From assembly GCA_023229505.1 (NCBI GenBank), contig JALNZD010000018.1:9089-73088 (forward strand): 64,000 nt of DNA, written 5' to 3'. The notes under the pieces are model-generated. The model was given only the letters and a program-made list of their open reading frames with translations, did not search any database and was not told the origin of the DNA. Every line of letters begins with the position of its first letter. Position 1 is the stretch's first letter. Source of the DNA: Bacteroidales bacterium. Its GTDB lineage: Bacteria; Bacteroidota; Bacteroidia; Bacteroidales; JAGOPY01. Made by a program: the position numbers and the translations under genes. Shown here piece after piece: positions 974 through 57,001 of the stretch.

Positions 974-1256
974 AATATTAAAATTTAGAATCAATATTTT
1001 ACTAAAAACTTTTGAATATATTTTAAGTCACCGATAAGTTATTTTGTCCCTTGATTTTTCATTGCCCTTGCCCCTACCTTATACCCGCTATCCCTGCAAT
1101 CCTATATACATCCTATAAGCATGTGGATAGGCGATGAAGTGTAGCGTGTTAGTTTAGGGCACCTCGAAAAACTAGTTTATGCCCGTTTATTAACGACTTA
1201 AAATTACAACATGGTTATCTGAAAACCTAATTTTTACCTCCCTGCTTTTTATTTAT

Positions 1257-3608
1257 CTATATCAATATTTTGCAAAACAGATGGATCCGCCCAGTATGCA
1301 TATCTTTCAATTTAATCTGACAAATAAATAAACCTTTGGTAAAGAAGTTTGTATTTACTATCATTTTAATCTCATTATCATAATTATAAGAAAGAACGAC
1401 CCGGCCATCCGCAGATATAATTTTCACACCAATAATACGCCAGGTATCGGGGTCGGCCACACTTATATTAATTTGATCTGTTGCCGGCACCGGGTAAATA
1501 ATGACTTCAGGGATTGAAAGACTGTCTTCATCAAGTCCTGAAACAGGAGGAAAACCAGAACCGGCAAAGTATTCCAGCCCACCCGAAAAATTCCCGGCAA
1601 TTAATTCAGGGTACCCATTCTGGTCAAGGTCAAACAGGGCTGGAGCCGATCTGTACCCACGGTCTGCTTTGAATTCCTGCAAGCCAATCAGGCCAGCCAG
1701 GGTGTCGGATAAAGTAAATTCCCCTTCAAGGTTCCCATCAATCCCTGTAAAATATAAAACATCCCCTTTTTCAGAACCCACCAGCAGATGGGTCTGATCC
1801 TGCGCATCCCTGTAAAAAAAAGGTACACTAAAGCCATCCAGCGAAATGGAATAATCAATCACGTTCACCTTTCCCAGGCTGTCAGTCACAAGCGTAAAAC
1901 CGGGATTTTGCATTGTTCCTGTATTCTTGTAAAAATTGATATTTCCCCCCTTTTCTCCGATGATAAGGTCGCTCAGGTTATCGCGGTCGAGATCAAAAAG
2001 TTGAGGCGTGCTAAATGCGCCCACATCGATGTCCTGGAAATTTAACTGACTTAAGGCCAGACTCATAGGCTCTCCGGGGCTTGCTGTATTAAGATAATAA
2101 ATGATCGTTCCATCTTCACAACCCAGGAGCATATCAACATCATTGTCCCCATCGAGATCACCGAAAGCAGGGGCCAGTCCTTTCAGGTCTAAGGAAGAAA
2201 CGCCTGCAAAATCACGATCCATAAAGGTAAAGGCAGGTTGCTCCGTTGTCCCGGTATTCCTTAGCCAGGCAACCTGGCTTGTATGCTCCGTATGCAGTGT
2301 CATGAACTGATCATAATAAGAAGTGTCATAGTATCCATAATTCCCGATTAGCAGGTCCGTCAGGCCATCCTGGTCAATATCCCAGAATACCGGGTAAGCC
2401 CCGGCACCCACATCGATCATTTGGTCCTGCAAAAAAGACCTGGACTTCAAATTAAACTGGGGCTGGTCATTACTGCCATCATTATGATAAAACCAGGCAC
2501 TTTGAAAATTATTGCTTAGAAATGGATTGGGATCGAAGGGCGCTACAAGCAGGTCATTAATCCCATCATTGTCAAAATCATCATAGAAAGCCGCTGGCAT
2601 GGAAAACAGATTAATGGGGACTCCGTCTGTAGGATATTGCCAGTCAAACGACACCATCCGTGCCGTATCAGCATTCCCTCCATTATATAAGGCAACCAGG
2701 TTAGGATAATCCACATCCCCCAGCAACAGGTCTATCAAATTATCACCATTTAATTCCAGGAGACGGAAGGTTGAACCGGTATGGCGTTCTTCCCGGTTCG
2801 CAGTTCCCAGTTCCCAGTTCCCAGTTCGCAGTTCCCAGTTCGCAGTTCCCAGTTCCAGGCTTCCATGCTCCCATGCTTCCCCGCTTTCGCACCTCAGGCA
2901 AGTATCAAGCGTAATCAGGTTCGATTCATCGCTTTCGGCAAAATAGCCCCAGCAGAAGTCTGTCTTCATGAAATCCAGCGAATCGCGCTTACCGTATTTC
3001 TCCATCGACATATTCCGGTGCTTTTCCACGAAAGAGCCCAGTCCCCAGAAGGTAAGTATATCCAGGTCACCGTCGCCATCAAGGTCACAGATGGCAGGGT
3101 AATCAGCATAGGTAACGAGGATGTTGACGTATCCCCCACCCTGGAAAGAAGTGAGGAAGGGATATACTTCCAGCCTGAAATCAAGATGGGTCAGTGAGAT
3201 ATTCCGATAGACCTTTAACCCGGCATAACCGGGAGAATAAGTGAAGATATCCTCTTTTCCATCGCCGTCATAATCTGTAAAAATTGCCCAATGAGAGAGT
3301 TGGGGAAAATACTCCGCGTATTCCGGAGCATATTCATAATCAAATATTTCGCCAGATTGGACTGTCAGGAAAGGCATGATCCGGTCACCTGTCCGGTCGA
3401 AGACGATAAGGTCTTTCAGCCCATCGAGGTCAATATCCAGCTTATAAAACTGGCAGGAATTCATGCCACCGGCCCAGGGAAACTGAAAATTATGGCGATC
3501 GGAAGCAAATACCTTAACTGATGTTGGCTTGTCCTGACCTGAAATGGGATTTAAAACCAAAATAAAGGAAATAAAAATCAACATGGGATATCTGAGATCA
3601 CATGGCAT
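1257..3608 (-). CDS. FG-GAP/VCBS-repeat (integrin-alpha-like propeller) secreted protein with T9SS type A C-terminal sorting domain
   Basis: 801-aa ORF with repeated Ca-binding-like DxDxDG motifs (DLDGDGDLDILT, DIDQDGLTDLLIG, DLDGDNDVDMLLG, DLDRDNLSDLIIG, DLDQNGYPELIAG). C-terminal IYPVPATDQINISV... tail is typical of Por/T9SS cargo. The track start at 3662 is GTG. In-frame ATGs at 3608 (MPCDLRYPMLIFISFILVLNPISGQ) or 3584 give a signal peptide, so the start is uncertain. Confidence 0.8.
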   Translation of the reverse strand: MPCDLRYPMLIFISFILVLNPISGQDKPTSVKVFASDRHNFQFPWAGGMNSCQFYKLDIDLDGLKDLIVFDRTGDRIMPFLTVQSGEIFDYEYAPEYAEYFPQLSHWAIFTDYDGDGKEDIFTYSPGYAGLKVYRNISLTHLDFRLEVYPFLTSFQGGGYVNILVTYADYPAICDLDGDGDLDILTFWGLGSFVEKHRNMSMEKYGKRDSLDFMKTDFCWGYFAESDESNLITLDTCLRCESGEAWEHGSLELGTANWELRTGNWELGTANREERHTGSTFRLLELNGDNLIDLLLGDVDYPNLVALYNGGNADTARMVSFDWQYPTDGVPINLFSMPAAFYDDFDNDGINDLLVAPFDPNPFLSNNFQSAWFYHNDGSNDQPQFNLKSRSFLQDQMIDVGAGAYPVFWDIDQDGLTDLLIGNYGYYDTSYYDQFMTLHTEHTSQVAWLRNTGTTEQPAFTFMDRDFAGVSSLDLKGLAPAFGDLDGDNDVDMLLGCEDGTIIYYLNTASPGEPMSLALSQLNFQDIDVGAFSTPQLFDLDRDNLSDLIIGEKGGNINFYKNTGTMQNPGFTLVTDSLGKVNVIDYSISLDGFSVPFFYRDAQDQTHLLVGSEKGDVLYFTGIDGNLEGEFTLSDTLAGLIGLQEFKADRGYRSAPALFDLDQNGYPELIAGNFSGGLEYFAGSGFPPVSGLDEDSLSIPEVIIYPVPATDQINISVADPDTWRIIGVKIISADGRVVLSYNYDNEIKMIVNTNFFTKGLFICQIKLKDMHTGRIHLFCKILI
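2795..2881. repeat. Tandem micro-array inside the FG-GAP CDS: 9 x 7 nt (GTTCSCA) then 3 x 8 nt (GCTYCCMY)
   Basis: Direct reading gives gttcgca gttccca gttccca gttccca gttcgca gttccca gttcgca gttccca gttccag, then gcttccat gctcccat gcttcccc. The total is 87 nt, a multiple of 3. Confidence 0.9.
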
Positions 3609-3716
3609 GGTTAAGGTTTTTTCTTTCAAAGATAGGAAAGATAGGTCACAATAGAGAGACACATAGGGGGATTACCTTTTTTCCGTACTTTTACAACATA
3701 ATCAAAAATACAGATT

Positions 3717-8278: not shown

Positions 8279-9733
8279 TTAGTTAAAGTTTTTTTTACGA
8301 ATTAAGACTAAGCCAATAAATATAAAAATACCGTTAATGATTAAAAGCTCAAATCCAAAGTTATAACCATTTAATAACACTTGATCATATATGCTTAAAA
8401 AGTAGCAAAGCACAGGTGATATAAAAGCGATCAGCGGCACCCACCTGTCTTTTACCTTCCAGCGGGTAAACAGACCGAAAGCATAAAGCCCGAGCAGAGG
8501 TCCGTAAGTATAACCGGCGATCGTGAAGAGTTTGTCGATTACTGCCCTGTCATTAATAGCCCGAAAAATCACGATAACTGAGAGTAATAAAAGGGCAAAA
8601 CCTGCATGGACCATATACCTGGTCATTTCTTTCTGTTTTTCAGAAAGTTTTTCATTCTTGTTTATCCCAAGAAAATCGATACTGAATGAAGTTGTCAGTG
8701 AAGTAAGGGCCCCGTCGGCACTTGGATAAGCAGCGGAAATAAGCCCGATGATGAAGATGAGGCCTGCCAGAGGCCCCAAATGGTTGATGGCAACCATGGG
8801 GAACAGATCATCTGACCTTCCGGGCAGGCTTATCCCTTTCAGTGTCGTAAACAAGTAAAGGGAAGCCCCCAGGAACAGAAAGAGGAAATTCACAAAGACG
8901 AGCACAAGGCTGAAAGAAAACATATTTTTTTGGGCATCCTTAAGGGTACGGCAGCTCAGGTTCTTTTGCATCATTTCCTGGTCAAGCCCGGTCATAACGA
9001 TGGCAATAAAAGCCCCGCTGAACAATTGTTTCAGGTAAAATCGCCTGTCGTGCCAATCCCCGAAAACCATCTTTGAATATTCACTTTCCCATACCGAATT
9101 GAACATCTGCCTGAAATCCAGCCCCAGGTTTTTTGTGATCAGGTATATCGTCAGCACCAAAGCGGTCAGCATGAAAGTAGTCTGAACTGTATCCGTCCAG
9201 ATGATCGTTTTAATCCCGCCCTTAAAAGTATAAAGGAGAATCAGTATGATGAAGATCATTGTGGTAACGGTGAAAGGGATGCCCCAGGCATCGAAAACAA
9301 AAACCTGTAAGACATTAACCACCAGGAACATCCGGAAAGATGCGCCGATCGTACGGGAAATGAGGAAAAAGAATGCGCCTGTCTTGTAGGACCAGAACCC
9401 GAACCTTCCTTCAAGGTATGAATAGATAGAAGTGAGGTTCAGGCGGTAAAAAAGCGGCATCAGGACGGTTGCTATAACGAAGTAGCCGAAAAGGTAGCCA
9501 ATCACTACCATCATGTAAGAAAACTGAGTATCCCCAACCCATCCGGGGACTGACATAAATGTAACCCCTGAGAGGGAAGCCCCGATCATCCCGTAAGCGA
9601 CAACCATCCAGGGTGATTGCTTATTACCAATGAAAAAAGCCCGGTTTGTCGCTTTCCGGGCCGTCAGCCATGTTATAAAAAATAATAATACTGTATAGAG
9701 AAGAAAGACGATCAGTATCAGGGAAGGTTTCAC
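8279..9733 (-). CDS. Sodium:solute symporter family (SSF) transporter
   Basis: 484-aa polytopic membrane protein with SSF-like N-terminus (ARKATNRAFFIGNKQSPWMVVAYGMIGASLSGVTFMSVPG). GTG start at 9731-9733. Lies 19 nt upstream of glnN. Confidence 0.8.
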   Translation of the reverse strand: MKPSLILIVFLLYTVLLFFITWLTARKATNRAFFIGNKQSPWMVVAYGMIGASLSGVTFMSVPGWVGDTQFSYMMVVIGYLFGYFVIATVLMPLFYRLNLTSIYSYLEGRFGFWSYKTGAFFFLISRTIGASFRMFLVVNVLQVFVFDAWGIPFTVTTMIFIILILLYTFKGGIKTIIWTDTVQTTFMLTALVLTIYLITKNLGLDFRQMFNSVWESEYSKMVFGDWHDRRFYLKQLFSGAFIAIVMTGLDQEMMQKNLSCRTLKDAQKNMFSFSLVLVFVNFLFLFLGASLYLFTTLKGISLPGRSDDLFPMVAINHLGPLAGLIFIIGLISAAYPSADGALTSLTTSFSIDFLGINKNEKLSEKQKEMTRYMVHAGFALLLLSVIVIFRAINDRAVIDKLFTIAGYTYGPLLGLYAFGLFTRWKVKDRWVPLIAFISPVLCYFLSIYDQVLLNGYNFGFELLIINGIFIFIGLVLIRKKNFN

Positions 9734-9787
9734 GGAAGGTTGGTTAGTGGTTATTGGTTATTCGGAAATCATGCATCGTGTATCGCT

Positions 9788-9837
9788 GTTCGATTGTTCG
9801 ATTGTTCAGGTGTTCCAAATTTCAAATTTCAAATTTC
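9788..9837. repeat. Two adjacent micro-arrays: GTTCGATT-type 8-mers x3.5 then AAATTTC 7-mers x3
   Basis: Reads gttcgatt gttcgatt gttcaggt gttcc, then aaatttc aaatttc aaatttc. Ends 3 nt before the gmhB stop codon (9841-9843) and lies upstream of the SSF gene. Confidence 0.9.
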
Positions 9838-11646: not shown

Positions 11647-11690
11647 ATAACTTGCATACAGTTATTCGTGGATGCAAAGATATAAAGATG

Positions 11691-11738
11691 TAACGATTTA
11701 ACGAAGTAACGATATAACGAAGTAACGATTTAACGATG
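11691..11738. repeat. Micro-array 6 x 8 nt (TAACGANN)
   Basis: Reads taacgatt taacgaag taacgata taacgaag taacgatt taacgatg. Lies between the gmhA start (11646) and the stop of the 787-aa gene (11794). Confidence 0.9.
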
Positions 11739-11793
11739 TGATGTATCGATATTCGAAGTACATATTCCCAATAACCAGTAACCAATGACCACC

Positions 11794-14157
11794 TTACTTT
11801 TCTTTCACTACCTTCACAGTCTCCACCAGCCAGCCATCAATGGTCATTCTAAGAATATACGTGCCTGCGGACAGGGAATTTCCGTACTCGTCCCTTCCAT
11901 CCCAATAAAAACTTCCCTTATCGCCAACCATGCCTGTGTTGTTGACCAGAGTCCTGACTTTCATCCCGGACATGCTGTAAACGCTGATATTTAACCTGCC
12001 ATTCTCCTTCAATTCATAACTCACATAGGTTCCATACGAGAATGGGTTAGGAGAAACCTCCATCAACTTTGAACTTTGAACTTTGAACTTTGAACTTGGC
12101 GCCTCCGGCGTCCCAACCCACGGTCCATACTCATACGCTCCCATGTCCACGCTTTCGCCCCAGATGCGGGGATTGCCTGCTATATCATATTCAGGTAGCT
12201 TTATTCCACGTGGAAGATTCTGTGTACCGGCGTCGATGCAGGGGGAGCCGGCATCGATGGCATAAGGGAATTCCTCAGAGCCAAGAAACACCGGGTCATC
12301 GTCAAGGTTACCTTCGCCCCATTCCACGTAATTGAAAGGCCCATAACTGATGATGCTGTCTTTTCCATCCTCTACAAGAGAATAATTGACCCTGACTGTA
12401 TCGGCCTGATCCGCTAAATCGTAATTTAAATATATCTGGTAAGGTTCATTGCCATAAAGTATGCAGTTGTAAAAGTTGATATCAGAACCACCAGTGGCGC
12501 CTACAGCTCCACCCCATGGATTGGTGGTGATGTTGTTTGCAAAGGTGGAGTTAACAATGTCCAAATAAATATCGCCAATAGTCGCAATAGCAGTAGCGCC
12601 GGGATATGGCGACCAGGGAGGGAAGTCGAAATTATCATTAAAAAGGCAATTGACAATCTTTGCGTATATCAAATCTGGTATGGTTTCTGAGCTGACAAAA
12701 TATACTGTGATATGTCCCTGGCTTGTGTCGGAAGTCATGTCCGGGCCGTTTTGATCAAACTGAGTTGAATTGAATTCAATATATCGTGGAAGCTCGTAGA
12801 AATGGTTAAATGGAACAATAGTTTGTATCCCTTTACATTCTTTTATTAAAGAATTATTAATGATCAGGGTGTCGTCAGAATCGGAATAAATTCCATGGAT
12901 AAAATAATTACTGGTGGCATTGATCAGGGAAATACTATCCAGGACAATTTTTTTTGAATAACCAATCGTGATGCCTCCGGTAAAATAAGTAAATGTTCCA
13001 TTCCCATTTTGGAAAGATATATTCTTTACATAGGTATAATCCTGGCCGAAAGCAAATCGGGCGCATTCATATTTGTTTTCACAATCCAGGATAGTGTTTT
13101 CTCTGCTTTGGCCTACAAGGTTCACATTATTCTTGAATTGCAGCGGTGTATGTTCTCCGGTTAAAGAATTGGAATATACTCCATCAGCAACATGAACTGT
13201 TTTCAGATTAATGCTATCTGAAGCGATCTTTAATAAAGCAAAGGAGATGGTTTTAAGCGGAGTATCCGGAGTAAGCCCTGAATTCCCGTCATCTCCCGAA
13301 GGACTGACATAAAGATCGGAATTCACCTGCTCGATTTTTCCATGCAAAACTGATATAGGTGGTCGTTCCATGTGAACTCCCCAGTCGCTGAATTTCCCTA
13401 TATAATAACGATCGGGATTCATTACGGTACATGTATCCAGCCAAATTTTAGCAATGGTGTCATCATATCCGACCACAATATCTGAAACCATTGAGCTGTA
13501 ATTCAAATAGACATTATTCAGATTTACACTATCGAATGTGACAATTGATAAGGTAGTACCAATACCTCCGGCAACATAAGACCAATTATGTGCTATTGTA
13601 TTTCCAAATAGCATTAATGATGAAGAGACACTGTAAACACCTCCGCCACACCAGGCAAAATTATACTTAAGGTGACAATTGATAATTTTGAGCTCTGAAT
13701 TCTCAATATATACACCTCCACCACTTCCGTAAAGCCAAGGGTACAAATTTTCCAGATAATTTGTCCCTGTACCATGCTGTAAGGTAAACCCGAGGATACT
13801 GCTCCAGCAATTGTTTTCTAAGGAACGGATACAACTTCCGGATTGGTTTCCGTCGATTATCGTCTGGTCGATAATGGAATCCTGCTGTGAAAGTCTCCAG
13901 GTGCTTGTTAGTACGATACATTTGTCAGTAAGGTCTACATTTTCGAAATATGCCCCGGGATATACCAGGATCGTGTCACCATCAGAAGAGGCATTCACAG
14001 CATCCTGGATGACATCAAAATCACCCGTTCCATCCTGTTTTACAGTAATGACCTGGCCTTTAGCCACGGAGATATACATTAGCAACAGGAAAAAGGATGC
14101 CATCCTTTTTATAAAAGGACGGCATCCTGTTAATATAGTATAGACAGTATTTATCAT
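11794..14157 (-). CDS. Right-handed beta-helix (pectin-lyase-fold) secreted protein with T9SS type A sorting domain
   Basis: N-terminal VKQDGTGDFDVIQDAVNASSDGDTILVYPGAY, many beta-helix-like turns, DIAGNPRIWGESVDMGAYEY, and C-terminal VSPNPFSYGT...GTYILRM tail. The ATG at 14157 overlaps the upstream stop (ATGA). Alternative ATG at 14103. Confidence 0.8.
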   Translation of the reverse strand: MINTVYTILTGCRPFIKRMASFFLLLMYISVAKGQVITVKQDGTGDFDVIQDAVNASSDGDTILVYPGAYFENVDLTDKCIVLTSTWRLSQQDSIIDQTIIDGNQSGSCIRSLENNCWSSILGFTLQHGTGTNYLENLYPWLYGSGGGVYIENSELKIINCHLKYNFAWCGGGVYSVSSSLMLFGNTIAHNWSYVAGGIGTTLSIVTFDSVNLNNVYLNYSSMVSDIVVGYDDTIAKIWLDTCTVMNPDRYYIGKFSDWGVHMERPPISVLHGKIEQVNSDLYVSPSGDDGNSGLTPDTPLKTISFALLKIASDSINLKTVHVADGVYSNSLTGEHTPLQFKNNVNLVGQSRENTILDCENKYECARFAFGQDYTYVKNISFQNGNGTFTYFTGGITIGYSKKIVLDSISLINATSNYFIHGIYSDSDDTLIINNSLIKECKGIQTIVPFNHFYELPRYIEFNSTQFDQNGPDMTSDTSQGHITVYFVSSETIPDLIYAKIVNCLFNDNFDFPPWSPYPGATAIATIGDIYLDIVNSTFANNITTNPWGGAVGATGGSDINFYNCILYGNEPYQIYLNYDLADQADTVRVNYSLVEDGKDSIISYGPFNYVEWGEGNLDDDPVFLGSEEFPYAIDAGSPCIDAGTQNLPRGIKLPEYDIAGNPRIWGESVDMGAYEYGPWVGTPEAPSSKFKVQSSKLMEVSPNPFSYGTYVSYELKENGRLNISVYSMSGMKVRTLVNNTGMVGDKGSFYWDGRDEYGNSLSAGTYILRMTIDGWLVETVKVVKEK
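12064..12098. repeat. Micro-array 5 x 7 nt (GAACTTT) inside the CDS, just upstream of the T9SS sorting domain
   Basis: Reads caacttt gaacttt gaacttt gaacttt gaacttg. It encodes ...SSKFKVQSSKL... on the minus strand. Confidence 0.9.
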
Positions 14158-17100
14158 TTGGTGATAATGGCTTTTTTCGTTATGGCATTACCGCAGGCTG
14201 ACATGCGGATCAAATAAATCCCAGGCGTAGACCTATCAATAAACAATTTTCCCCACTGGATCGAATAATTGCCGGCCTGTTCATTCTCCGTTTGAAACGT
14301 ATTGAGTTTCCGGCCGTAAACATCGAATAACTCAAAAGTGACATCAGATTCGCAGGGAATGAAGTAATCGATGTTGCAGAAATCCGGGCAGGGATTCGGA
14401 TTAAAGTCAAGGATTAATGGATTGGCCCAGGAACTTGAATTGGCTTCCTTTTTAAAAGAGACCTGGTAATATTTTTTATTTTCACGAGAATTGATAGCCC
14501 TTTTTTCCTGCAAATTAGTCCTATTATTTAAAACATAATATTCATCGATTCGATCTGAGGAGCTCTTTTCATTTCCATAGTATTTTTCGAAAGTGATCAT
14601 ACCGCTGGAATCATTTGGCATGTAGCCCCTTATCATTGCCATCGAATCGAGTTCTTCAACCACGGTGGCGCCGATACAGGAGTCGGCAATAAATGCTCCG
14701 ATTTCCAGGGGATGGTCACCGGTATCAAGTTCAATGAAAATAGGGGTGTAATCCGGTTTTTCTGCATAGGTAAAGTTTTCTGATTTTGGCAGATCACGAA
14801 TAGCGCCGGAAGAAGTACCTCCCCATTGGAAAGTAACATCTTCAGAACATTCGAGGATCAACATATCGGCGTATTTCAACGGTTTTGTGATGGAGCACAT
14901 CCAGTACGGTTCAAGATTTCCTCTAGGAGGTATATATCCCCATACCTTGACACAGACCCAGTCGTGGTGCTTGATCAGGGTGAGTTCATCCAGCACATCG
15001 GCCAGAGCAGCAAATGGATCCTGCGGCCAGGTAGGGTAATATCCCACCCAATTCTGATAGCCCGCATAAATGGTCAGGGGGTATGCCGGATCAAGCTGTG
15101 TGCCTTCCATAGAAAGATAGGAAATATACGAATTATTCGTCTCGAGCTTGTATCCTCTGGTACTGTATATTGCGTTTAAATCTCCTGTCCAATGCGGCCA
15201 TGAAGTTGTGTACATAATATGCTCTTCCAAACCAACTAGTCTCTGGGGTGGCAGGTTGGTCATTTGCAGGTATGTTGGGAAAGGATCGATATTTACCAGG
15301 ACAGGCTGGGCAGGGACAGGGTCGTTACCTACCCGGTCGAGGCGCGGGAAGGAGAGCCAGTTCCAGACTCCGAGTCCGGGTTGGAGGGCAAGTTGATCAG
15401 GTGAACATTGAACAATGCTTATGTTTCCAAGTCCCTGATTAGGAATATACAAGTAATTACTACTTTCATCGAATACCATTTTCTCAGTTGGTGATATAGG
15501 AAAAAGATCCTTAACAAAATTTTCCTGAAGATAGATATCACTACTTAACTCAAAGTCATCACATCTGTAAGAATACAAGCGAATTTGATTTTTATAGTAA
15601 TTCATATCATAATGAAACATGTGTAAATAAACCATATCATTCGCCTGGTTATAATAAGTAGCAATGATGTGATCTTCCACTGGGAACTGTATTTCATGAA
15701 GAAATTCATATGTTGACGCATTATAAAATTGTATTATTGGTTCCAAAAACACAATAATGAGTCTATCATTTCTAGGCGAATATTGACATTCTCTAATTGT
15801 TTCAGATAGATAGATTGTTTCAACAACTGAGAAATTTGATGGATTAATAATAGTTACACTATTGTCTGACAATAAATAAATTTGATTCTTCACTTTATTG
15901 TAAAATAATGCATTACTATAATTTGAAGGTAATATCTGATAAGAATGAGATCCGATTATTTGGTTGGAGTTATGATCAATTTCTAACAATTTACAACCCC
16001 AGATGCCATCTTCATAGGCCAGTGCAATACAATTCCCATCTTTTAAGAGTGCGAAATCTCTTATTTCATAGGGTGAAGTCAAGCCATTGTTTTGGATCTG
16101 TCCAATAGTATAGTCCGACATATTCATAAACTCTAATACATTCCACCCACCTAAATATGTATAATTATTCTCACCTGGTTGAAATAAATTTACTTGATCT
16201 GTAGAAATTACTTGAAATTGGTCAGTATGGCCATCAACAACAGTTATTTGCGACTCCATATAATCATGATTTGAAACGACAAGTTTTTCAGAACCTGCAT
16301 GATAAGCAAGATCGTAAATAGCTCGACCTATTGCAATTGAAGTGAATGAGTTATCAAATAGGTTTTGGATTGAAAGGAAAGTCTCTGATTCTGGCGAAAA
16401 ATCTTGAATCCAGTAATTTTTTTGCCATGTAGGGTTTAGAACTCCTTTTAGGATATCGTCCCCTAAATGAACCTGGTGAATCAACTCCAGTGATAAAGAG
16501 TAGCTATCAATGGAATTCGCTTCGAGGTTGGAAAGAACTATTTGATCATCCCCTGCATGTATTAAATGATTGGATACTCCATTTACGGAGACAGAATTCT
16601 CAATATCAGAGCCGTAAATTTTGTATAAATTATAACCTGAACAATAAACACGATCATTCGAAGGACTACATAGGACCTGATCAACATGTGGTAAAATCAA
16701 TTCTGCAACAATTGGTGAGTTGGTATTCTGACGCGTATAATCAACTATCACCAATTTAAAGTCACCTGCAGTCGTCTTTCCAACAAAATAAGCATAATGA
16801 ATATTATTACCAATATAGCAAGATGATTCAGAGCCGAATACAGGAAAATCATTGATCGAGTAATTTGATATATAATTAAGTTGATTTGTATAAGGATTAA
16901 TTAAAAATGCATCGAGGCATGAATTAGAATTATTTTGGCTGATACAATAAAGTCTGTTTGCTTCGCCTATATATTGCAATTTGGTTGCAATTTTATCCGA
17001 TATATTATATGAGTCAAATTCGCTTAGATCTAATGGGTCTATTAAACATATCTGTCCACTTGGTGTTTGTGTTACACTACGTGTAATAGATAAAGCCAGA

Positions 17101-17687
17101 TAGTCATTTTGGTGACAAAAAGTGACATCAAATATTTTATATTCAAAAGGTATATCATAATGGCCAAAAGTACTCATAGATGATAGATTAATTCCTACAA
17201 GACGGGTATCCCCAATTATGTGCACACTATTTTGTACCCAATATAATCTATCTAAATCAGGATTGTAATATAGGAAAGAACCTAACAGGGGATCTAAGGA
17301 TGAAAATTCGTGAATAATTTGATTGTTATTACAATCAATAACCAGTAATTTATCATCCTCATTTGCACAATAAATATAGTTACGGCTATGATCAAAGGCA
17401 AGTTTATGAGTTTTTTCTATTGTACTATGAAAACCGATAAAATATCCTGTTTGTCCGACAGTGATTGCTCCTACGATTATGCCTGAAGTTTTATTGACGA
17501 GGATAATTTTTTGACCGGTATATACATAAAATAAATTGTTTATGTCATTATAAATGATACTATGTGGTGAAGCTTGAGAATTTTCATTTGGCACATATAT
17601 ATTTTCAAGGAAAACATCCTGGGCAGTTAAAAAATAAGAACTCGAAATAAAAATTAAAAGAAGTGTTATAAATAATTTTGCTTTCAT
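14154..17687 (-). CDS. Very large secreted protein, propeller-like N-terminal repeats, T9SS type A sorting domain
   Basis: 1177 aa with signal peptide MKAKLFITLLLIFISSSYFLTAQ. Recurrent ...RLYC/VYCS/IYLL... strand-like repeats. C-terminal DFNPNPCPD...GIYLIRM tail. Confidence 0.8.
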   Translation of the reverse strand: MKAKLFITLLLIFISSSYFLTAQDVFLENIYVPNENSQASPHSIIYNDINNLFYVYTGQKIILVNKTSGIIVGAITVGQTGYFIGFHSTIEKTHKLAFDHSRNYIYCANEDDKLLVIDCNNNQIIHEFSSLDPLLGSFLYYNPDLDRLYWVQNSVHIIGDTRLVGINLSSMSTFGHYDIPFEYKIFDVTFCHQNDYLALSITRSVTQTPSGQICLIDPLDLSEFDSYNISDKIATKLQYIGEANRLYCISQNNSNSCLDAFLINPYTNQLNYISNYSINDFPVFGSESSCYIGNNIHYAYFVGKTTAGDFKLVIVDYTRQNTNSPIVAELILPHVDQVLCSPSNDRVYCSGYNLYKIYGSDIENSVSVNGVSNHLIHAGDDQIVLSNLEANSIDSYSLSLELIHQVHLGDDILKGVLNPTWQKNYWIQDFSPESETFLSIQNLFDNSFTSIAIGRAIYDLAYHAGSEKLVVSNHDYMESQITVVDGHTDQFQVISTDQVNLFQPGENNYTYLGGWNVLEFMNMSDYTIGQIQNNGLTSPYEIRDFALLKDGNCIALAYEDGIWGCKLLEIDHNSNQIIGSHSYQILPSNYSNALFYNKVKNQIYLLSDNSVTIINPSNFSVVETIYLSETIRECQYSPRNDRLIIVFLEPIIQFYNASTYEFLHEIQFPVEDHIIATYYNQANDMVYLHMFHYDMNYYKNQIRLYSYRCDDFELSSDIYLQENFVKDLFPISPTEKMVFDESSNYLYIPNQGLGNISIVQCSPDQLALQPGLGVWNWLSFPRLDRVGNDPVPAQPVLVNIDPFPTYLQMTNLPPQRLVGLEEHIMYTTSWPHWTGDLNAIYSTRGYKLETNNSYISYLSMEGTQLDPAYPLTIYAGYQNWVGYYPTWPQDPFAALADVLDELTLIKHHDWVCVKVWGYIPPRGNLEPYWMCSITKPLKYADMLILECSEDVTFQWGGTSSGAIRDLPKSENFTYAEKPDYTPIFIELDTGDHPLEIGAFIADSCIGATVVEELDSMAMIRGYMPNDSSGMITFEKYYGNEKSSSDRIDEYYVLNNRTNLQEKRAINSRENKKYYQVSFKKEANSSSWANPLILDFNPNPCPDFCNIDYFIPCESDVTFELFDVYGRKLNTFQTENEQAGNYSIQWGKLFIDRSTPGIYLIRMSACGNAITKKAIITK

Positions 17688-17795: not shown

Positions 17796-17823
17796 CTCTC
17801 TCTCTCTCTCTCTCTCTCTCTCT
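17796..17823. repeat. (CT)14 dinucleotide microsatellite
   Basis: 28 nt of uninterrupted ctct..., 109 nt upstream of the ATG (17687) of the 1177-aa gene. Confidence 0.95.
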
Positions 17824-17950
17824 ACGGAATTGTGGTATTTCAAACGCCATTTCATAAAGAGTTGAATATTACTCATTTCTCATTTCATGAATTGGGGGAT
17901 TTAAAAATACAACAATATTGAGGGAAAAGCAAGAAAAACTTAAAACAATA

Positions 17951-18100: not shown

Positions 18101-18130
18101 ATTTTCAAATTTTCAAATTTCCAAATCACC
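18101..18130. repeat. Micro-array 3.5 x 8 nt (ATTTTCAA)
   Basis: Reads attttcaa attttcaa atttccaa atcacc. Ends 3 nt from the stop codon at 18134-18136. Confidence 0.85.
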
Positions 18131-18133
18131 TCC

Positions 18134-18748
18134 TTACTTCTTCCCGTCTTTGGTATCCATCACAGGTTTCTTATCCGTCCCTGAATTTGCCGGGGTTCCA
18201 CTCTCCTTCGACGGCATAATTTTAACATTTGAGGGTGTGCCACCTTGCTGTACTTGTCCTTTGGCTTGTTGGGCTACCGGGCTCTTATCGGCATTCCAGG
18301 TTTCCGCCACAATCTTCCAGATCCCATCTTTATTTTTCTTCCAGACGTTAAGATACTTGCCATTATCTACTTTTGGCTCAGTAAGTCCGGGGAAAGTCAT
18401 CGTCAAAGAATAGGTTCCAATATCAACCATAATATCCTCTCCCATAATTAATTCCGTAGTAGTTTTCTGCCCATCGAGTATTTTATAGCCTCCTTTTTGT
18501 CGCCCTAAATTATTTGAAAGGATTAGCTTGTACCCTGTTTCCTTTGCCCGGTAATTTGGCAAAGAAATAGCATCACCATCATAATATTTTTCCATAGTTT
18601 CATAACTGCCTGTTTTGACAAGATCTATCATCTCCTTGTTCATTTTCATGATTAAAGATTTCATTTCATCCCTGGATTGAGCAAAAGATCCAAAAGAGAA
18701 AAGCATAAGCAACAAAACTGTAATAGCATTAATAATCAAGCGTTTCAT
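18134..18748 (-). CDS. Secreted SnoaL/NTF2-like (DUF4440-like) protein with low-complexity tail
   Basis: Signal peptide MKRLIINAITVLLLMLFSFGSFAQ, a ...GKYLNVWKKNKDGIWKIVAETWN motif, and a Q/G/P/K-rich C-terminus. Confidence 0.6.
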   Translation of the reverse strand: MKRLIINAITVLLLMLFSFGSFAQSRDEMKSLIMKMNKEMIDLVKTGSYETMEKYYDGDAISLPNYRAKETGYKLILSNNLGRQKGGYKILDGQKTTTELIMGEDIMVDIGTYSLTMTFPGLTEPKVDNGKYLNVWKKNKDGIWKIVAETWNADKSPVAQQAKGQVQQGGTPSNVKIMPSKESGTPANSGTDKKPVMDTKDGKK

Positions 18749-29432: not shown

Positions 29433-29583
29433 GTAAGAGTATTTTAAGTTAATCCACTGTTAAATTAAAAAATATTATGTTACAAAACGTATTATTTTTT
29501 ATAAAAATATCTTTTCGCAACTATTTATAAGATTATTTCTTTCTTTTTCGTTTTTTTTTAATTTTATTTTCTTTTATTTTCAT

Positions 29584-29591
29584 TATATTTG
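29584..29591 (+). promoter_or_regulatory. Candidate Bacteroidota -7 promoter box TATATTTG (TAnnTTTG)
   Basis: Exact match to the TAnnTTTG consensus, 26 nt upstream of the agaS ATG in the divergent agaR/agaS region. Confidence 0.35.
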
Positions 29592-29616
29592 TTTTATTAA
29601 ATTGATCTGAAATTCA

Positions 29617-30774
29617 ATGGAACATCTTGGAATAGATGAAAGCGTATTGATCGGAAGAGGGGCAATCAATACCGCCAGGGAGATCGAGGGACAACCGGTA
29701 TTGTGGAAAAAGACCTGGCAGAAGATAGCCAATGAATCAGGGGACATCAGTTCATTTCTCGGAGAAACACTGCCTCAGGTGCAGCGTATTATTCTTACCG
29801 GGGCAGGTACCAGTGCATTTATCGGGTTGAGCCTCAAAGGTAAATTTCAGAAAGCATTTGGAAAGATTACCGAAGTAATTCCCACCACTGACCTGGTATC
29901 CAACCCCGAAGATTTCCTGATCAGGGACGTGCCAACCCTCATGGTTTCCTTTGCGCGTTCGGGTAACAGTCCGGAAAGCGTGGCTGCCGTCATGCTCGCT
30001 GATCAGCATGTCAGTAAATGCCATCATCTTTTCATCACCTGCGATCCCAGCGGGAAACTTGCCCGTCATGCAACCCGGCTGAAAAATCACCTCATCCTTA
30101 TGCCCGAAGAGGCTAATGATAAAAGTTTAGCCATGACAGGAAGCTATTCATCAATGCTCCTGACGGGCATATTAATAGCTGAAATTGATTTAATCCGGGA
30201 GAACGAACAAATTGTCAATACCTTATCAGAAATCAGCCGGCTTTTTATTACTTCAAAACTGGAAATAATTCGTAAAATAGCTGAAGCCGATTTCGACCGG
30301 GCCATTTTCCTTGGCTCCGGGCCTTTATATGGTGTGGCAACAGAGTCACATCTCAAACTTCAGGAACTTACTGATGGAAAAGTCATTTGCAAACACGAAT
30401 CCTTTCTTGGCTTCCGGCACGGACCAAAAGCCGTCACTAACAATAAAGCACTTATCATTTACCTGCTTTCAAACAATAGTTACGTCAGAAAATATGAAAT
30501 CGACCTGATACAGTCCATGGCCAAAGGGCAGCAGGCCCTTATGGAAGCCGGGGTCAGTGAAACACGTTTTAATGAGCTTCCTTTGGATCATTTCTTATAT
30601 TTTTCCGAAGATGAAGTTAAACTTACTGATGAGTATTTCTGCATGGCAAGTATATTACCGGCGCAGCTAATTGGTTTTTTTAAATCCTGGAACCTCGGTC
30701 TGAGCCCTGATGCCCCATCAACAAGCGGCGCTATTTCACGGGTTGTTGAAGGGGTGAAGATCTATGGCATATAG
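29617..30774 (+). CDS. agaS: Galactosamine-6-phosphate deaminase/isomerase (tagatose-6-P forming), double SIS domain
   Basis: Collinear with remembered E. coli AgaS: ILTGAGTSAFIG, PTTDLVSNPEDF, SFARSGNSPESVAAV, FRHGPKAV, SPDAPSTSGAISRVVEGV. Confidence 0.9.
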   Translation: MEHLGIDESVLIGRGAINTAREIEGQPVLWKKTWQKIANESGDISSFLGETLPQVQRIILTGAGTSAFIGLSLKGKFQKAFGKITEVIPTTDLVSNPEDFLIRDVPTLMVSFARSGNSPESVAAVMLADQHVSKCHHLFITCDPSGKLARHATRLKNHLILMPEEANDKSLAMTGSYSSMLLTGILIAEIDLIRENEQIVNTLSEISRLFITSKLEIIRKIAEADFDRAIFLGSGPLYGVATESHLKLQELTDGKVICKHESFLGFRHGPKAVTNNKALIIYLLSNNSYVRKYEIDLIQSMAKGQQALMEAGVSETRFNELPLDHFLYFSEDEVKLTDEYFCMASILPAQLIGFFKSWNLGLSPDAPSTSGAISRVVEGVKIYGI

Positions 30775-30836
30775 AATTAAAAATTGAAAATTGAAAATTG
30801 AAAATTGAAAATTGAAAACTCAGAACTCAGAACTCC
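30774..30836. repeat. Micro-array 9 x 7 nt (GAATTAA, AAATTGA x5, AAACTCA, GAACTCA, GAACTCC)
   Basis: Direct reading. It begins at the last base of the agaS stop codon and ends 13 nt before the agaZ ATG. Confidence 0.95.
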
Positions 30837-30849
30837 AAAGATTGAAAAC

Positions 30850-32103
30850 ATGAGTGCTGGCGAAATACATGGTGAAGTGCCGCTAATGGAGCAGATTCTG
30901 CTCAGGATAAAAGACCTGGAAAAAGAAACGGGTATTAAAAGAACGATTTTAGCTGCTTGTCCGAATTCCCGCGCTGTGATCAAAGCTGCACTGCGTTCAG
31001 CCAAGCGGTGCAACGCTCCCGTCAAATTTTCCGCAACCCTCAACCAGGTCGATCTGGATGGCGGATATACCGGGTTCACACAACAGGAATTTGTCAACTT
31101 CATCCGGCAGGAAGCCCTGGTCATCAACCTCACAGGTCCGGTGATCATAGCCATCGATCACGGCGGGCCCTGGCTGAAAGATAGCCAGCGTCAGGGAAGA
31201 TGGCCGTACGATGCAGCAATGGCAGCCATTAAAGAATCTTTCGAAGCCGCAATCGATGCGGGTTACCATCTTATACATGTCGATCCGACGATTGATATTA
31301 ACCTGCATGATAATGAAATAATCAGCATTGAGGTGGTCGCCCAAAGAACTGTCGAGCTGATCGCCCATGCAGAGAATTATCGCCGCAGGAGACATTTGCC
31401 CCGTATCTCCTATGAAGTAGGAACAGAGGAAGTCCATGGCGGCCTGGCTAACATGAAAACTTTTACACGTTTCCTCCGGCTCTTGAAAGAAGGTTTATAT
31501 GAGAAAGCGTTTAACGATACCTGGCCCTGCTTTATCGTCGGAAAAGTCGGGACAGACCTTCATACTACCTTATTCGATCATGAGGTGGCATGGACCCTGG
31601 CTAAGATCGCAGCCGATTATAACAGTTACATAAAAGGGCATTATACAGACAATGTCGAAAACCCGGAAGATTATCCGGAATCGGGAATGGGCGCGGCAAA
31701 CGTAGGTCCTGAATTCACCGAACGGGAATATGACGGGCTGATGGAGCTGGAAGCTTTAGAAGAAAATCTGATCAGGCAGGATAAAATAAAAGATGCAGGA
31801 CAAATAAAAAAAACTTTGCGGGAAGCAGTTATCGCATCCGGGAGATGGAAAAAATGGCTCCAGGCAGGTGAAAACCAGGAAGATTTTAACTCGCTTGATC
31901 CCGGAAGGCAGGAATGGCTTATCAAGACGGGTTGCCGGTATATCTGGGAAAACCCGGAAGTAGTATCTGCCAGGGAAAAATTATATCTGAACCTGAAAAA
32001 ATCCGGCATTGACGGTGAAGAAATTGTCCTTTCCCATATCGAACATGCAATGGAAAAGTATTTCTTTAAGTTTAACCTTTTCGACCTGAATAAGTACCTT
32101 TAA
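30850..32103 (+). CDS. agaZ: Tagatose-bisphosphate aldolase non-catalytic subunit, GatZ/KbaZ/AgaZ family
   Basis: ACPNSRAVIKAALRSAKRCNAPVKFSATLNQVDLDGGYTGFTQQEF, IDHGGPW, YEVGTEEVHGG. The track start 30805 is a TTG inside the tandem array. The first ATG is at 30850 (MSAGEIHG...). Confidence 0.85.
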   Translation: MSAGEIHGEVPLMEQILLRIKDLEKETGIKRTILAACPNSRAVIKAALRSAKRCNAPVKFSATLNQVDLDGGYTGFTQQEFVNFIRQEALVINLTGPVIIAIDHGGPWLKDSQRQGRWPYDAAMAAIKESFEAAIDAGYHLIHVDPTIDINLHDNEIISIEVVAQRTVELIAHAENYRRRRHLPRISYEVGTEEVHGGLANMKTFTRFLRLLKEGLYEKAFNDTWPCFIVGKVGTDLHTTLFDHEVAWTLAKIAADYNSYIKGHYTDNVENPEDYPESGMGAANVGPEFTEREYDGLMELEALEENLIRQDKIKDAGQIKKTLREAVIASGRWKKWLQAGENQEDFNSLDPGRQEWLIKTGCRYIWENPEVVSAREKLYLNLKKSGIDGEEIVLSHIEHAMEKYFFKFNLFDLNKYL

Positions 32104-42707: not shown

Positions 42708-42735
42708 CAGAAGTCAGAAGACAGAATGCAGAAGA
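42708..42735. repeat. Micro-array 4 x 7 nt (CAGAAGN)
   Basis: Reads cagaagt cagaaga cagaatg cagaaga, about 55 nt upstream of the nagB start. Confidence 0.85.
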
Positions 42736-42928
42736 TTTTGTTGAAAATTTTGATTCTTAGTCATCAATTAACCACAGTAGGCACATTAGAACACATAGAA
42801 AGCCACAATAGACCTAAGTGTTTTTCTAATGTGTCCTAATGTGTCTAATGTGGTAAAAAGGCGTAACGCAGATACTCCTGTCAACTGCCGACTCGATAAA
42901 AAATATTCCTATCTTTGCCGCCAGCCAC

Positions 42929-43001
42929 GGTCTCGTAGCTCAGTGGATAGAGCAACAGCCTTCTAAGCTGTGGGTCGCGCGTTCGAATCGCGCCGAGATC
43001 A
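42929..43001 (+). tRNA. tRNA-Arg (anticodon TCT)
   Basis: Hand-folded cloverleaf. Acceptor GGTCTCG/CGAGATC, D arm GCTC-AGTGGATA-GAGC, anticodon stem-loop ACAGC-CTTCTAA-GCTGT, T arm GCGCG-TTCGAAT-CGCGC, discriminator A. Confidence 0.9.
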
Positions 43002-43008
43002 CTAGGAA

Positions 43009-43036
43009 GTTGGCAGTTGACAGTTGGCAGTTGTCA
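43009..43036. repeat. Micro-array 4 x 7 nt (GTTGNCA) directly 3' of tRNA-Arg
   Basis: Reads gttggca gttgaca gttggca gttgtca. Confidence 0.9.
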
Positions 43037-43139
43037 GGATCACAAACCAGTGGTTAATTACCGGAAAGGGCTGGCCGGTGGCTGTGAGCCGTCTATAAAG
43101 CCAATAACTGAAAACCTGCCTTATAATATTTAAGATTTT

Positions 43140-48380: not shown

Positions 48381-48401
48381 CTGACTGCTGACTGCTGATC
48401 C
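48381..48401. repeat. Micro-array 3 x 7 nt (CTGACTG)
   Basis: Reads ctgactg ctgactg ctgatcc, 28 nt after the stop of the 47961-48353 ORF. Confidence 0.8.
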
Positions 48402-48868: not shown

Positions 48869-48908
48869 TTTTTAATTTTTAATTATTAATTTTTAATTTT
48901 TAATTATC
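48869..48908. repeat. Micro-array 5.7 x 7 nt (TTTTTAA) ending at the phzF-like ATG
   Basis: Reads tttttaa tttttaa ttattaa tttttaa tttttaa ttatc, then ATG (48909). Confidence 0.9.
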
Positions 48909-50562: not shown

Positions 50563-50730
50563 ATGATCATCATCCTTTTTATATACAGCCTGATTTTTAT
50601 CGCCCTAGGATTGTTTTTTATCTTGAAAAAGAAAAAAATCCTCGGTGGCATGTTTATCCTGCTGGCAATTATGTTAACCATCGTTGGAATAGTAGCAATA
50701 GCAATTTATCCTAACATCTGGCCCTTTTGA
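50563..50730 (+). CDS. Candidate small two-TM membrane protein (55 aa, below ORF-track cutoff)
   Basis: ATG at 50563. MIIILFIYSLIFIALGLFFILKKKKILGGMFILLAIMLTIVGIVAIAIYPNIWPF*. Two hydrophobic helices joined by a KKKK loop. The stop lies 2 nt before the next ATG. Confidence 0.4.
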   Translation: MIIILFIYSLIFIALGLFFILKKKKILGGMFILLAIMLTIVGIVAIAIYPNIWPF

Positions 50731-50732
50731 AC

Positions 50733-51419: not shown

Positions 51420-51425
51420 CGATGT

Positions 51426-51478
51426 AGCGATATAGCGATATTACGATTTGATGTTTATCAAAAATTCGCTATATCGCT
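51426..51478. terminator. Bidirectional hairpin between convergent genes
   Basis: Perfect 13-bp arms agcgatatagcga/tcgctatatcgct with a 27-nt loop. The loop contains an inner ttgat/atcaa stem. Confidence 0.5.
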
Positions 51479-51494
51479 TTATTTACAAATTCCC

Positions 51495-51522
51495 CAACTC
51501 AAAACTCAAAACTTAAAACTTT
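51495..51522. repeat. Micro-array 4 x 7 nt (AAACTCA-type) overlapping the pepE stop codon
   Basis: Reads caactca aaactca aaactta aaacttt. The pepE stop is at 51506-51508. Confidence 0.85.
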
Positions 51523-55114: not shown

Positions 55115-55135
55115 ATTTTTAATTTTTAATTTATA
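55115..55135. repeat. Micro-array 3 x 7 nt (ATTTTTA) between the two tRNA-Leu genes
   Basis: Reads attttta attttta atttata. Same unit as the 48869 array. Confidence 0.75.
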
Positions 55136-56922: not shown

Positions 56923-56943
56923 CAAAGTTCAAAGGGCAAAGTT
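56923..56943. repeat. Micro-array 3 x 7 nt (CAAAGTT), reverse complement of the unit at 12064-12098
   Basis: Reads caaagtt caaaggg caaagtt. Starts 3 nt after the stop codon at 56918-56920. Confidence 0.8.
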
Positions 56944-56962: not shown

Positions 56963-57001
56963 AACCTGACGGGTCTGGCGACGCCATCAGGTTTGGTTTT
57001 T
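56963..57001 (+). terminator. Intrinsic terminator; second copy of the CCTGAC hairpin element
   Basis: aacctgacgg(11 nt)ccatcaggtt: a 10-bp stem with one mismatch, followed by TGGTTTTTTCTTG. Confidence 0.65.

Follow-up and report, generated by a model that had tools for sequence, protein, structure and literature searches.

Tandem repeats with 7-nt units near the ends of open reading frames (ORFs) are already described in bacteria, and we consider here how a population of 7- and 8-nt micro-arrays in a 64,000-nt stretch of DNA from an uncultured Bacteroidales bacterium (contig JALNZD010000018.1; "the window"), among them an array that occupies most of the spacer between an agaS-like SIS gene and gatZ, compares with the known systems. 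As summarised in PMC4679880 and PMC4692102, Mrazek, Guo & Shah (2007) found heptanucleotides to be the commonest class of long simple-sequence repeats (LSSRs) and proposed that the length of about 7 nt reflects a polymerase-DNA contact that favours slippage; polymerase slippage has been proposed as the source of heptamer over-representation (PMC4679880, PMC4692102). Rehm et al. (2015; PMC4692102) described GGGNATC/GGGGAYT heptamers in Xanthomonas and Nostoc that are about 90% intergenic and lie mostly 0-50 bp from ORF ends, with the G-rich strand being the non-coding one before starts and the coding one after stops. The same gene pairs flank these repeats in relatives, and both length and sequence vary widely. 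MacGregor (2015; PMC4679880) reported that Beggiatoaceae, Cyanobacteria and five Bacteroidetes carry direct repeats of heptamers, TAACTGA among them, and proposed S1, Csp or CsrA binding for the TAACTGA repeats. The short tandemly repeated repetitive sequences (STRRs) of cyanobacteria (Mazel et al., 1990, as described in PMC2670836) are 7-bp tandem units in spacers, for which roles in transcript stability or translational coupling were suggested.

The window arrays are heptameric and octameric LSSRs of this already described kind, and we consider it probable that they are hypermutable simple-sequence repeats (SSRs) generated by slippage, on which selection for reading frame and for leader structure has acted as a filter. 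They were called with Tandem Repeats Finder (TRF), with a lag-p scan (thresholds 9-11) controlled by 40 dinucleotide-preserving shuffles, and by direct reading. By the scan, the window holds 10-12 arrays of period 7 against 0.03-0.30 expected and 5-6 arrays of period 8 against 0-0.5 expected, and periods 4-6 and 9-16 fall at or near the shuffle range. The confirmed intervals consist of head-to-tail units of 7 or 8 nt in 2.6-8.7 copies, up to 9.6 by the TRF listing, with a lag-identity of 0.76-1.00 (Table 1). An earlier note on this DNA had proposed a dispersed population of such micro-arrays at 13 listed intervals. The population is genuine, with the period-7/8 excess lying far above the equal frequency in composition-matched shuffles that the note had named as a reason to abandon the idea; 12 of the 13 intervals were recovered, and the remaining one (56923-56943) is weak and falls below both TRF and the scan. 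Four further arrays (9741-9762, 11768-11791, 17868-17886 and 51420-51441) were absent from that list.

The observation of short tandem arrays in the window is real. If the arrays were chance or compositional artefacts, or assembly errors, one might point to the few listed examples that are short (2.6 copies) and to the sub-threshold array at 56923, but the 30- to 300-fold excess over dinucleotide-preserving shuffles is specific to periods 7-8, and alike arrays occur in dozens of related contigs. Independent assemblies, L004 as well as L095 (100% over 7.6 kb), carry the window arrays in identical form; assembly artefact is excluded, and we give the artefactual reading virtually no credence. At 100% identity, L095 and the window are one strain, and their comparison carries no information on polymorphism; one Logan contig, from a k-mer assembly, ends inside the 30775 array.

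The units abut directly and are not separated by unique spacers, in agreement with the earlier view that the arrays are neither CRISPR (clusters of short palindromic repeats at regular intervals) nor REP (repetitive extragenic palindromic) elements. An Rfam search of the window returned tRNAs only and no other structured RNA, and the arrays are nearly without fold (mean minimum free energy, MFE, -0.9 to -2.6 kcal). CRISPR, REP elements or MITEs (miniature transposable elements with inverted repeats), iterons and structured RNA were rejected as identities of the arrays. A scan for sigma-70 promoters and terminators gave no meaningful enrichment at the arrays, which are not hairpins.

The earlier note saw no described element class that fits, and let that claim depend on the lack of a match to a catalogued repeat family. 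Heptameric SSRs near ORF ends are such a family (PMC4692102, PMC4679880, PMC2670836), and the claim of novelty fails for this reason: what stands is a real, boundary-associated population of arrays, and what falls is the new element class. Four features of the LSSR class are found here, namely uninterrupted units of 5-11 nt above compositional expectation, a mode of 7, intergenic placement near ORF ends, and variation in unit number and sequence. The likeness to the LSSRs of Mrazek (2007), as far as the later summaries describe them, extends to their patchy phylogeny, mostly non-coding location and explanation by slippage; the differences are that octamers are here nearly as enriched as heptamers (25 and 40 in the close clade defined below) and that the host, an uncultured Bacteroidales, lies outside the genomes highlighted in the summaries of PMC4679880 and PMC4692102. 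With the Xanthomonas/Nostoc heptamers the arrays share placement, strand rule and variation at the same spacers. Those heptamers, however, have one dominant G-rich unit capable of forming G-quadruplexes, whereas the units here are diverse, A/T-rich and free of G-runs; the window unit list contains no GGG-bearing heptamer, the nearest being the CCC of GTTCCCA in a coding array.

The TAACTGA repeats (PMC4679880) are similar in their copy number (2 to tens), in their intergenic location often a few nt upstream of starts in one orientation, in overlapping some stops or ORF peripheries, in breaking contigs, in the occurrence of other heptamers alongside them in Bacteroidetes spacers, and in the existence of relatives without repeats at the same spacer. 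They are defined by a single unit for which horizontal transfer was proposed, whereas units here turn over in situ, and no TAACTGA doublet was found on either strand of the window or of any fetched related locus. STRRs are alike in being 7-bp tandem units dispersed in spacers; they comprise few defined units at high copy in heterocystous cyanobacteria, in contrast to the many units of this Bacteroidales lineage.

Comparisons between strains suggest how the arrays change. L092 is 94.2% identical to the window over 12.4 kb, and five of the seven arrays in this alignment differ by exact unit multiples (-21, +7, -8, +7 and -16 nt), compared with about six indels in the other 12.1 kb, a roughly 35-fold enrichment of array indels per base. 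The change of -21 nt falls in the coding array at 2796-2877. Among the non-coding arrays, the one at 9741-9762 differs by +7 nt (one unit), those at 9787-9807 and 9816-9837 have one unit fewer and one unit more (x4), respectively, and the one at 11676-11737 differs by -16 nt (two units); the weak array at 11768-11791 has one substitution and no change of length.

A still closer comparison is available at the SIS-to-gatZ spacer. As the earlier note had placed it, this array lies at the SIS stop, abutting the TAG at 30772-30774. The spacer from this stop to the gatZ ATG at 30850 is 75 nt long, and the 61 nt of array dominate its sequence, which reads TAG, AATTAAA(AATTGAA)5 AA(AACTCAG)2.7 CCAAAGATTGAAAAC, ATG. 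L086 and L087, about 99% identical to the window, have x3.3 AATTGAA and x1.7 AACTCAG where the window has x6.3 and x2.7, and in the alignment of the window with L086 (98.9% identity over 7.3 kb) the sole gap, of 28 nt, falls inside this array. The unit-number polymorphism that the earlier note had proposed looking for in relatives is thus present, as whole-unit differences, in both L086/L087 and L092. In the lineage at about 92% identity (L088-91), and also in L085, the spacer contains (AGTTGRC)x4 in register with the AATTGAA units of the window, and in L088-91 a homologous CAGAAYT-CAGAACT tail follows. The array is open in frame from 30805 to 30849, which accounts for an inconsistent annotation of the gatZ start (proteins P0003, P0008 and P0009): the JGI and Logan callers begin at TTG 30805 (432 aa) and NCBI at ATG 30850 (417 aa), bearing out the false ORF extension that had been suspected at this TTG.

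L085 itself is 100.0% identical to the window over about 6.4 kb save for a patch of about 110 nt, seen on comparing L085:2049-2320 with window 30690-30960, that runs from the final codons of SIS through the array spacer into gatZ, of which it takes in the first ~14 codons. The patch allele is akin to that of the 92% lineage without being identical, and it represents either recombination over a very short tract with the array at its centre or a chimera of the assembly. The divergent DeoR/SIS promoter region contains a T-rich low-complexity repeat (29536-29598; periods 5/10/11/16, TTTCATTTTA-like) that adjoins a -7-like box at 29584.

The HAD-to-SSF spacer shows the same replacement of units. 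At least nine relatives (among them L006, L010, L011, L014, L017, L018, L021, L026 and L032) have other units there, even of other periods, and in some relatives the HAD and SSF genes abut without a spacer. Turnover of units at fixed sites is therefore seen in the SIS-to-gatZ spacer, in the HAD-to-SSF spacer and in a coding linker (AGTTCAA / AATTCAA / GATTCCA) described below. These dynamics are what would be expected of slippage-prone SSRs under concerted evolution, and the exact unit-multiple indels point to replication slippage as the probable generator.

Relatives were gathered with the SSF transporter (8279-9733) as the handle, which gave 80 related metagenome loci (0.83 Mb), divided into a close clade at 70-85% protein identity (295 kb) and a distant set (537 kb). 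The close clade contains 40 arrays of period 7, 25 of period 8, 8 of period 9 and 12 of period 10, with at most 5 at any other period; one shuffle of the related loci gives 1-4 arrays per period. Density is about 0.22-0.25 arrays/kb in the window and close clade versus about 0.03/kb in distant relatives, with the exception of L044, a separate rich lineage. Array richness is thus lineage-restricted with a sharp peak at 7-8 nt, a distribution that matches the one called "sporadic" in the literature. The window itself carries genes of SusC/SusD, CHU_C and type IX secretion system (T9SS) tail types, and among reference genomes the Flavobacteriaceae come closest, at about 50% identity. A cyanobacterial origin, which the STRR-like units had suggested, was rejected because the closest genomes and the annotations belong to Bacteroidota/Bacteroidales.

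Placement was examined in the window and close clade together (364 kb, 94 arrays). At least 69 of the 94 arrays lie in the 10.8% of the DNA outside long ORFs (P about 1e-46), about 7% of intergenic bases belong to arrays, and most of the apparent in-ORF arrays are ORF extensions or spurious ORFs built from array sequence. Density is 2.0-2.2/kb in co-directional and divergent spacers and 1.4/kb in convergent ones, and within co-directional spacers 25 arrays are nearer the start and 19 nearer the stop. Most array-bearing spacers are only 34-250 nt long and the arrays cover 25-80% of them, so nearness to a start or stop codon is automatic there. Since the edge-proximity statistic derived from masked ORF maps is biased for start codons, it was repeated with stop codons only; where a spacer leaves 100 nt or more free, the array positions are bimodal relative to the stop codon, at one end or the other, in agreement with Rehm et al. 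(2015). A separate observation concerns L013:9264-9638, where TTTTCGC heptamers and TCGCTACC octamers form a block of about 350 nt with a 59-nt higher-order repeat, a length sufficient for a spurious ORF of 124 aa to be called.

These results divide the earlier proposal that the arrays mark gene boundaries. Eleven of its 13 loci do lie within 0-60 nt of a start or stop codon, and the other two (2796-2877 and 12065-12097) are deep in genuine coding sequence. The arrays are strongly non-coding and hug gene ends even in long spacers, but the proximity is largely a short-spacer effect, has no preference for starts and leaves the two genic arrays aside. Individual placements agree with what had been claimed: the 48869-48905 array stops 3 nt short of the phzF ATG, and pepE takes its final two codons and its TAA stop from the 51496-51521 array. 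Other window arrays lie between two tRNA-Leu genes, 5 nt past a tRNA-Arg gene, or against a -7-like promoter box (TATCTTTG, into which the proximal end of the 11676-11737 array merges). No single positional function covers all of these contexts.

Upstream of start codons the arrays follow a strand rule. In arrays at most 40 nt upstream of a start, the sense strand contains 9.9% G and 19.8% C, with 23 arrays having G<C and 6 having G>C (p=8e-4); merging these arrays into 17 putatively independent spacer groups leaves a bias of 11 versus 2 (p about 0.02). The array at 9741-9762, whose sense strand is the G-free ATAACCA, is an example from the window. Arrays past stop codons lean the opposite way (18 versus 9, p=0.06), so that the rule of Rehm et al. 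(2015) is reproduced upstream and appears as a trend downstream. Folded alone, the arrays have a mean MFE of -0.87 kcal/mol in the sense and -2.39 kcal/mol in the antisense orientation (p=0.011). The 7.5 kcal effect of flipping arrays in context was set aside as an artefact, in which flipped arrays pair with residual flanking copies, and the array-alone values were used instead.

Bacteroidetes ribosomes ignore Shine-Dalgarno sequences, and initiation requires an unstructured initiation region in which upstream adenines may bind bS1. The strand rule could accordingly be read as function: the arrays would be RNA-level cis-elements, unstructured and G-poor landing pads, possibly bS1-bound, whose copy number tunes expression of the gene that follows. 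This reading is compatible with an origin by slippage. It would account for a sense-strand G depletion and lack of structure that are specific to upstream arrays, and for HAD-to-SSF leader arrays that persist across relatives despite full turnover of units and are always G-poor on the sense strand, and it has a precedent in the S1/Csp/CsrA binding suggested by MacGregor (PMC4679880). However, about as many arrays lie past stops, between convergent genes, by tRNAs or inside genes, relatives in which the genes abut do without any array, and background leaders are already G-poor (G 15.5%, C 18%). The strand bias is explained equally well by selection that removes harmful orientations. A positive landing-pad role is possible, but as an account of the arrays we think it unlikely; the simplest supposition is that selection weeds out arrays oriented so as to structure the leader.

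The units themselves give a more ambiguous picture. The earlier suggestion that distant loci have units in common is marginal within the window (P 0.05-0.12) and significant across the wider clade, the observation that many units start with GTTC is weak, and support within the window for a single family defined by common units is weak. The 11 strong window heptamer arrays represent 10 unit classes, with only TTTTTAA/ATTTTTA recurring. AGTT/AACT is prominent in the window and was rejected as a universal core, not being the top motif clade-wide. Across the clade there are 14 pairs of identical units where 2.7 are expected, and the CpG-containing cores TCGT, CGTA, TCGC and CGCT are 5-10x over intergenic background, partly via orthology. 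The 43008-43037 array shares its unit and 26 identical nt with the SIS-to-gatZ spacer allele of L088, the string AGTTGGC-AGTTGAC-AGTTGGC-AGTTG thus being found at two unrelated sites in different strains. Three window units, TTCCCAG, TTGGTTA and GTCAACT (at 2790, 9740 and 43008; the last is the reverse complement of AGTTGAC), are one mismatch from STRR units that we take to be CCCCAGT, TTGGTCA and CAACAGT, near-matches for which our rough estimate by chance, given these presumed STRR sequences, is about 0.7.

Such sharing is what one would look for if the arrays were binding-site arrays at the DNA level, of iteron or operator type, or the footprints of a mobile or copy-paste seeding of units. 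The identical pairs, the recurring TCGY-type cores, the 26-nt string and the patch around the array in the otherwise identical L085 all lean in this direction. Yet nearly every window array has a different unit, orthology inflates the sharing, and ordinary recombination or a chimera could account for the L085 patch. The arrays, furthermore, lack terminal inverted repeats, target duplications and associated genes. Strain differences, moreover, consist of whole-unit gains and losses within existing arrays. We regard seeding or DNA-level binding as very improbable.

The two coding arrays are both in genes for T9SS-secreted proteins. The first, at 2796-2877, lies in an FG-GAP T9SS cargo protein (1257-3662, minus strand; 783/801 aa), where its sense strand encodes the loop SLELGTANWELRTGNWELGTANREE / ELGTANWELRTGNWELGTAN, which is flanked by two conserved motifs, TLDTCLRC and RHTGSTF. 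In the L006 orthologue (63% identity) the array-coded residues are missing, as gaps of 20 and 2 residues, and in a 93% relative the loop is exactly 7 aa (21 nt, three units) shorter. Distant homologues have a plain loop of 8-10 residues, and homologues at or above 60% identity have loops of 21-46 residues, most with 7-residue periodic peptides; the loop is hypervariable across the clade. Such periodic peptides are what a heptamer leaves when each of the three frames is read in turn. In P0015 and P0023, homologues of the same protein, the loop between CLRC and RHTGSTF holds an insert '...VILSEAKD(P/L)...' with no heptamer-periodic peptide, which suggests that a second kind of small element landed there.

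Upstream of the FG-GAP gene, at about 3650, L092 has 85 extra nt starting TGGGTGAT TGGGCGAT, an octamer doublet absent from the window, and this insertion may represent an array born or lost between strains. Beyond the gene, L092:12617-21584 does not align with window 1-1074 and contains IS21 (IstB/rve), IS91-type Y2 transposase and phage-integrase genes, which places a break of synteny at this point.

The second coding array, at 12065-12097, lies in the gene for a DUF1565/beta-helix protein of 787 aa (11794-14157, minus strand), in which it encodes the linker that directly precedes the T9SS C-terminal domain. Checked at the DNA level, the position and length of this linker are kept in homologues down to 41% identity, and their arrays are internally homogeneous, with AATTCAA x4.6 at 62% identity and GATTCCA x4.6 at 41% identity in the same codon positions; in L092 the array is unchanged. 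The linker is a clear case of concerted evolution at constant length.

A homogeneous tract at a conserved position and of conserved length suggests phase variation, and the arrays might be contingency loci, in which slippage by one unit, 7 not being divisible by 3, switches T9SS cargo ON or OFF and in-frame changes vary surface loops. Promoter and leader arrays would then act as rheostats, and the tracts would be kept by second-order selection for switchability. In Bacteroidota, phase variation classically proceeds by DNA inversion. The phase-variable contingency loci of Haemophilus, Neisseria and Campylobacter do resemble these arrays in having slippage-prone tracts in surface or secreted genes and near promoters, with unit-number polymorphism, and PMC2651432 includes heptanucleotide SSRs in its discussion of phase variation in Haemophilus. 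The location of both coding arrays in secreted proteins, a hypervariable loop that differs by exactly three units between strains, and a linker tract whose homogeneity is hard to explain without frequent slippage are what this model would predict. In contrast to the ON/OFF alleles of the known loci, however, no frameshifted (OFF) allele was found among truncated homologues, none of which is broken at the array, although minority alleles are invisible in consensus assemblies; only in-frame differences (-21 nt) separate the coding arrays of different strains, the 94% strain has an unaltered 12065 tract, and most arrays are where the reading frame is irrelevant. We therefore judge it improbable that the arrays are contingency loci.

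We return to slippage filtered by selection. Strand slippage in DNA replication or repair, or an equivalent unequal exchange, would create the arrays and keep them homogeneous, with gains and losses of whole units far more frequent than background indels and with a spread of unit variants within an array by concerted evolution. Arrays would survive in spacers and in tolerant protein loops and linkers, and inside genes only changes that keep the frame would be seen. Within about 40 nt upstream of a start they would survive mainly in the orientation that gives a G-poor, unstructured mRNA, as the Shine-Dalgarno-independent Bacteroidota ribosome would need. Several results sit poorly with this account. 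Slippage alone does not explain an optimum at 7-8 nt with periods 5-6 almost absent, nor does it predict non-random units and identical units at non-homologous sites. A neutral model has no direct prediction for edge-hugging in long spacers, and for a neutral hypermutable tract the constant linker length at 41% identity would require strong length selection together with continuing homogenisation. Finally, the gene maps are ORF-based approximations and all comparisons are between metagenome assemblies.

Table 1. Tandem micro-arrays of the window, with repeat unit and copy number, how each was called, and its setting.
Coordinates	Strand	Repeat	Called by	Setting
2796..2877	-	composite (GTTCSCA)x8.7 then (TTCCATGC)x3.1	TRF, lag scan	coding, FG-GAP T9SS cargo gene
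9741..9762		(TGGTTAT)x3.1	TRF, lag scan	7 nt upstream of SSF transporter start codon (9733, minus strand)
9787..9807		octamer (TGTTCGAT)x2.6	TRF, lag scan	107-nt HAD-to-SSF spacer
9816..9837		(CAAATTT)x3.1	TRF, lag scan	3 nt from HAD-gene stop codon (9841)
11676..11737		octamer (TAACGANN)x7.8, 16-nt higher-order period	TRF, lag scan	upstream of SIS_2 start (11646, minus strand)
11768..11791		weak (CCAATAA)x3.4	TRF score 34	adjoins stop codon of 787-aa gene
12065..12097	-	perfect (AGTTCAA)x4.7 on sense strand	TRF, lag scan	coding, encodes SSKFKVQSSKL
17868..17886		weak (ATTTCTC)x2.7	TRF, lag scan (score 9)	446-nt spacer upstream of 1177-aa T9SS gene
18101..18126		octamer (ATTTTCAA)x3.2	TRF, lag scan	7 nt past DUF4440 gene stop (18134-18748, minus strand)
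30775..30835	+	(AATTGAA)x6.3 + (AACTCAG)x2.7	TRF, lag scan, direct reading	SIS-to-gatZ spacer
42708..42735		(CAGAAGN)x4	TRF, lag scan	52 nt upstream of 774-aa gene start (42655, minus strand)
43008..43037		(AGTTGRC)x4.3	TRF, lag scan	5 nt past tRNA-Arg 3' end (42929-43002)
48381..48398		(CTGACTG)x2.6	TRF, lag scan	27 nt past stop of 130-aa ORF
48869..48905	+	(TTTTTAA)x5.3	TRF, lag scan	phzF-family ATG at 48909
51420..51441		octamer (CGATATAG)x2.8	TRF, lag scan	begins directly after stop of 230-aa ORF (50727-51419)
51496..51521		(AACTCAA)x3.7	TRF, lag scan, direct reading	overlaps pepE 3' end (51506-52216, minus strand)
55115..55132		(ATTTTTA)x2.6	TRF, lag scan	half of 34-nt spacer between two co-oriented tRNA-Leu genes
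56923..56943		weak 3-copy CAAAGTT (CAAAGTT CAAAGGG CAAAGTT), lag-identity 0.71	direct reading only	between DUF4301 stop (56920) and predicted hairpin terminator (56970-56995)

Some other repeats were noted in the window. Between the arrays at 42708 and 43008, a 9-mer CACATTAGA occurs about twice at 42782-42800 and its reverse complement TCTAATGTG three times at 42825-42852. This inverted arrangement lies about 80-150 nt upstream of the tRNA-Arg gene and of a -7-like box (TATCTTTG at 42910), and could be an operator or a hairpin. The sole long period-2 tract of the window is at 17796-17823. A 22-nt direct repeat present twice (82% identity) at 14091-14135 coincides with the overlap of two T9SS-tail genes, at the stop of 14154-17687 and the start of 11794-14157.

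The arrays have practical consequences in that they break metagenome assemblies and mislead start-codon calling, as with the 432-aa and 417-aa versions of gatZ, and they could serve as strain-typing markers. The coding heptamer tracts offer clean natural examples of concerted evolution. That the heptamer and octamer tracts form a selected, genome-wide tuning system, and are not mere slippage debris, seems to us doubtful at best. Were it so, the tracts in T9SS genes would be frameshift switches and generators of loop variation, those in Shine-Dalgarno-less leaders and intercistronic spacers would be copy-number rheostats of translation, and the homogeneous tracts at the same sites, the conserved length at 41% identity and the turnover of units would be accounted for together. 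More broadly, the window extends a documented and poorly understood class of heptameric SSRs to an uncultured Bacteroidales clade, in which the arrays are dense, at about 7% of intergenic DNA, and include octamers. The recurrence in a third phylum of the positional and strand rules known from Xanthomonas and Nostoc argues for a general constraint, that of unstructured initiation regions, and against a lineage-specific function.

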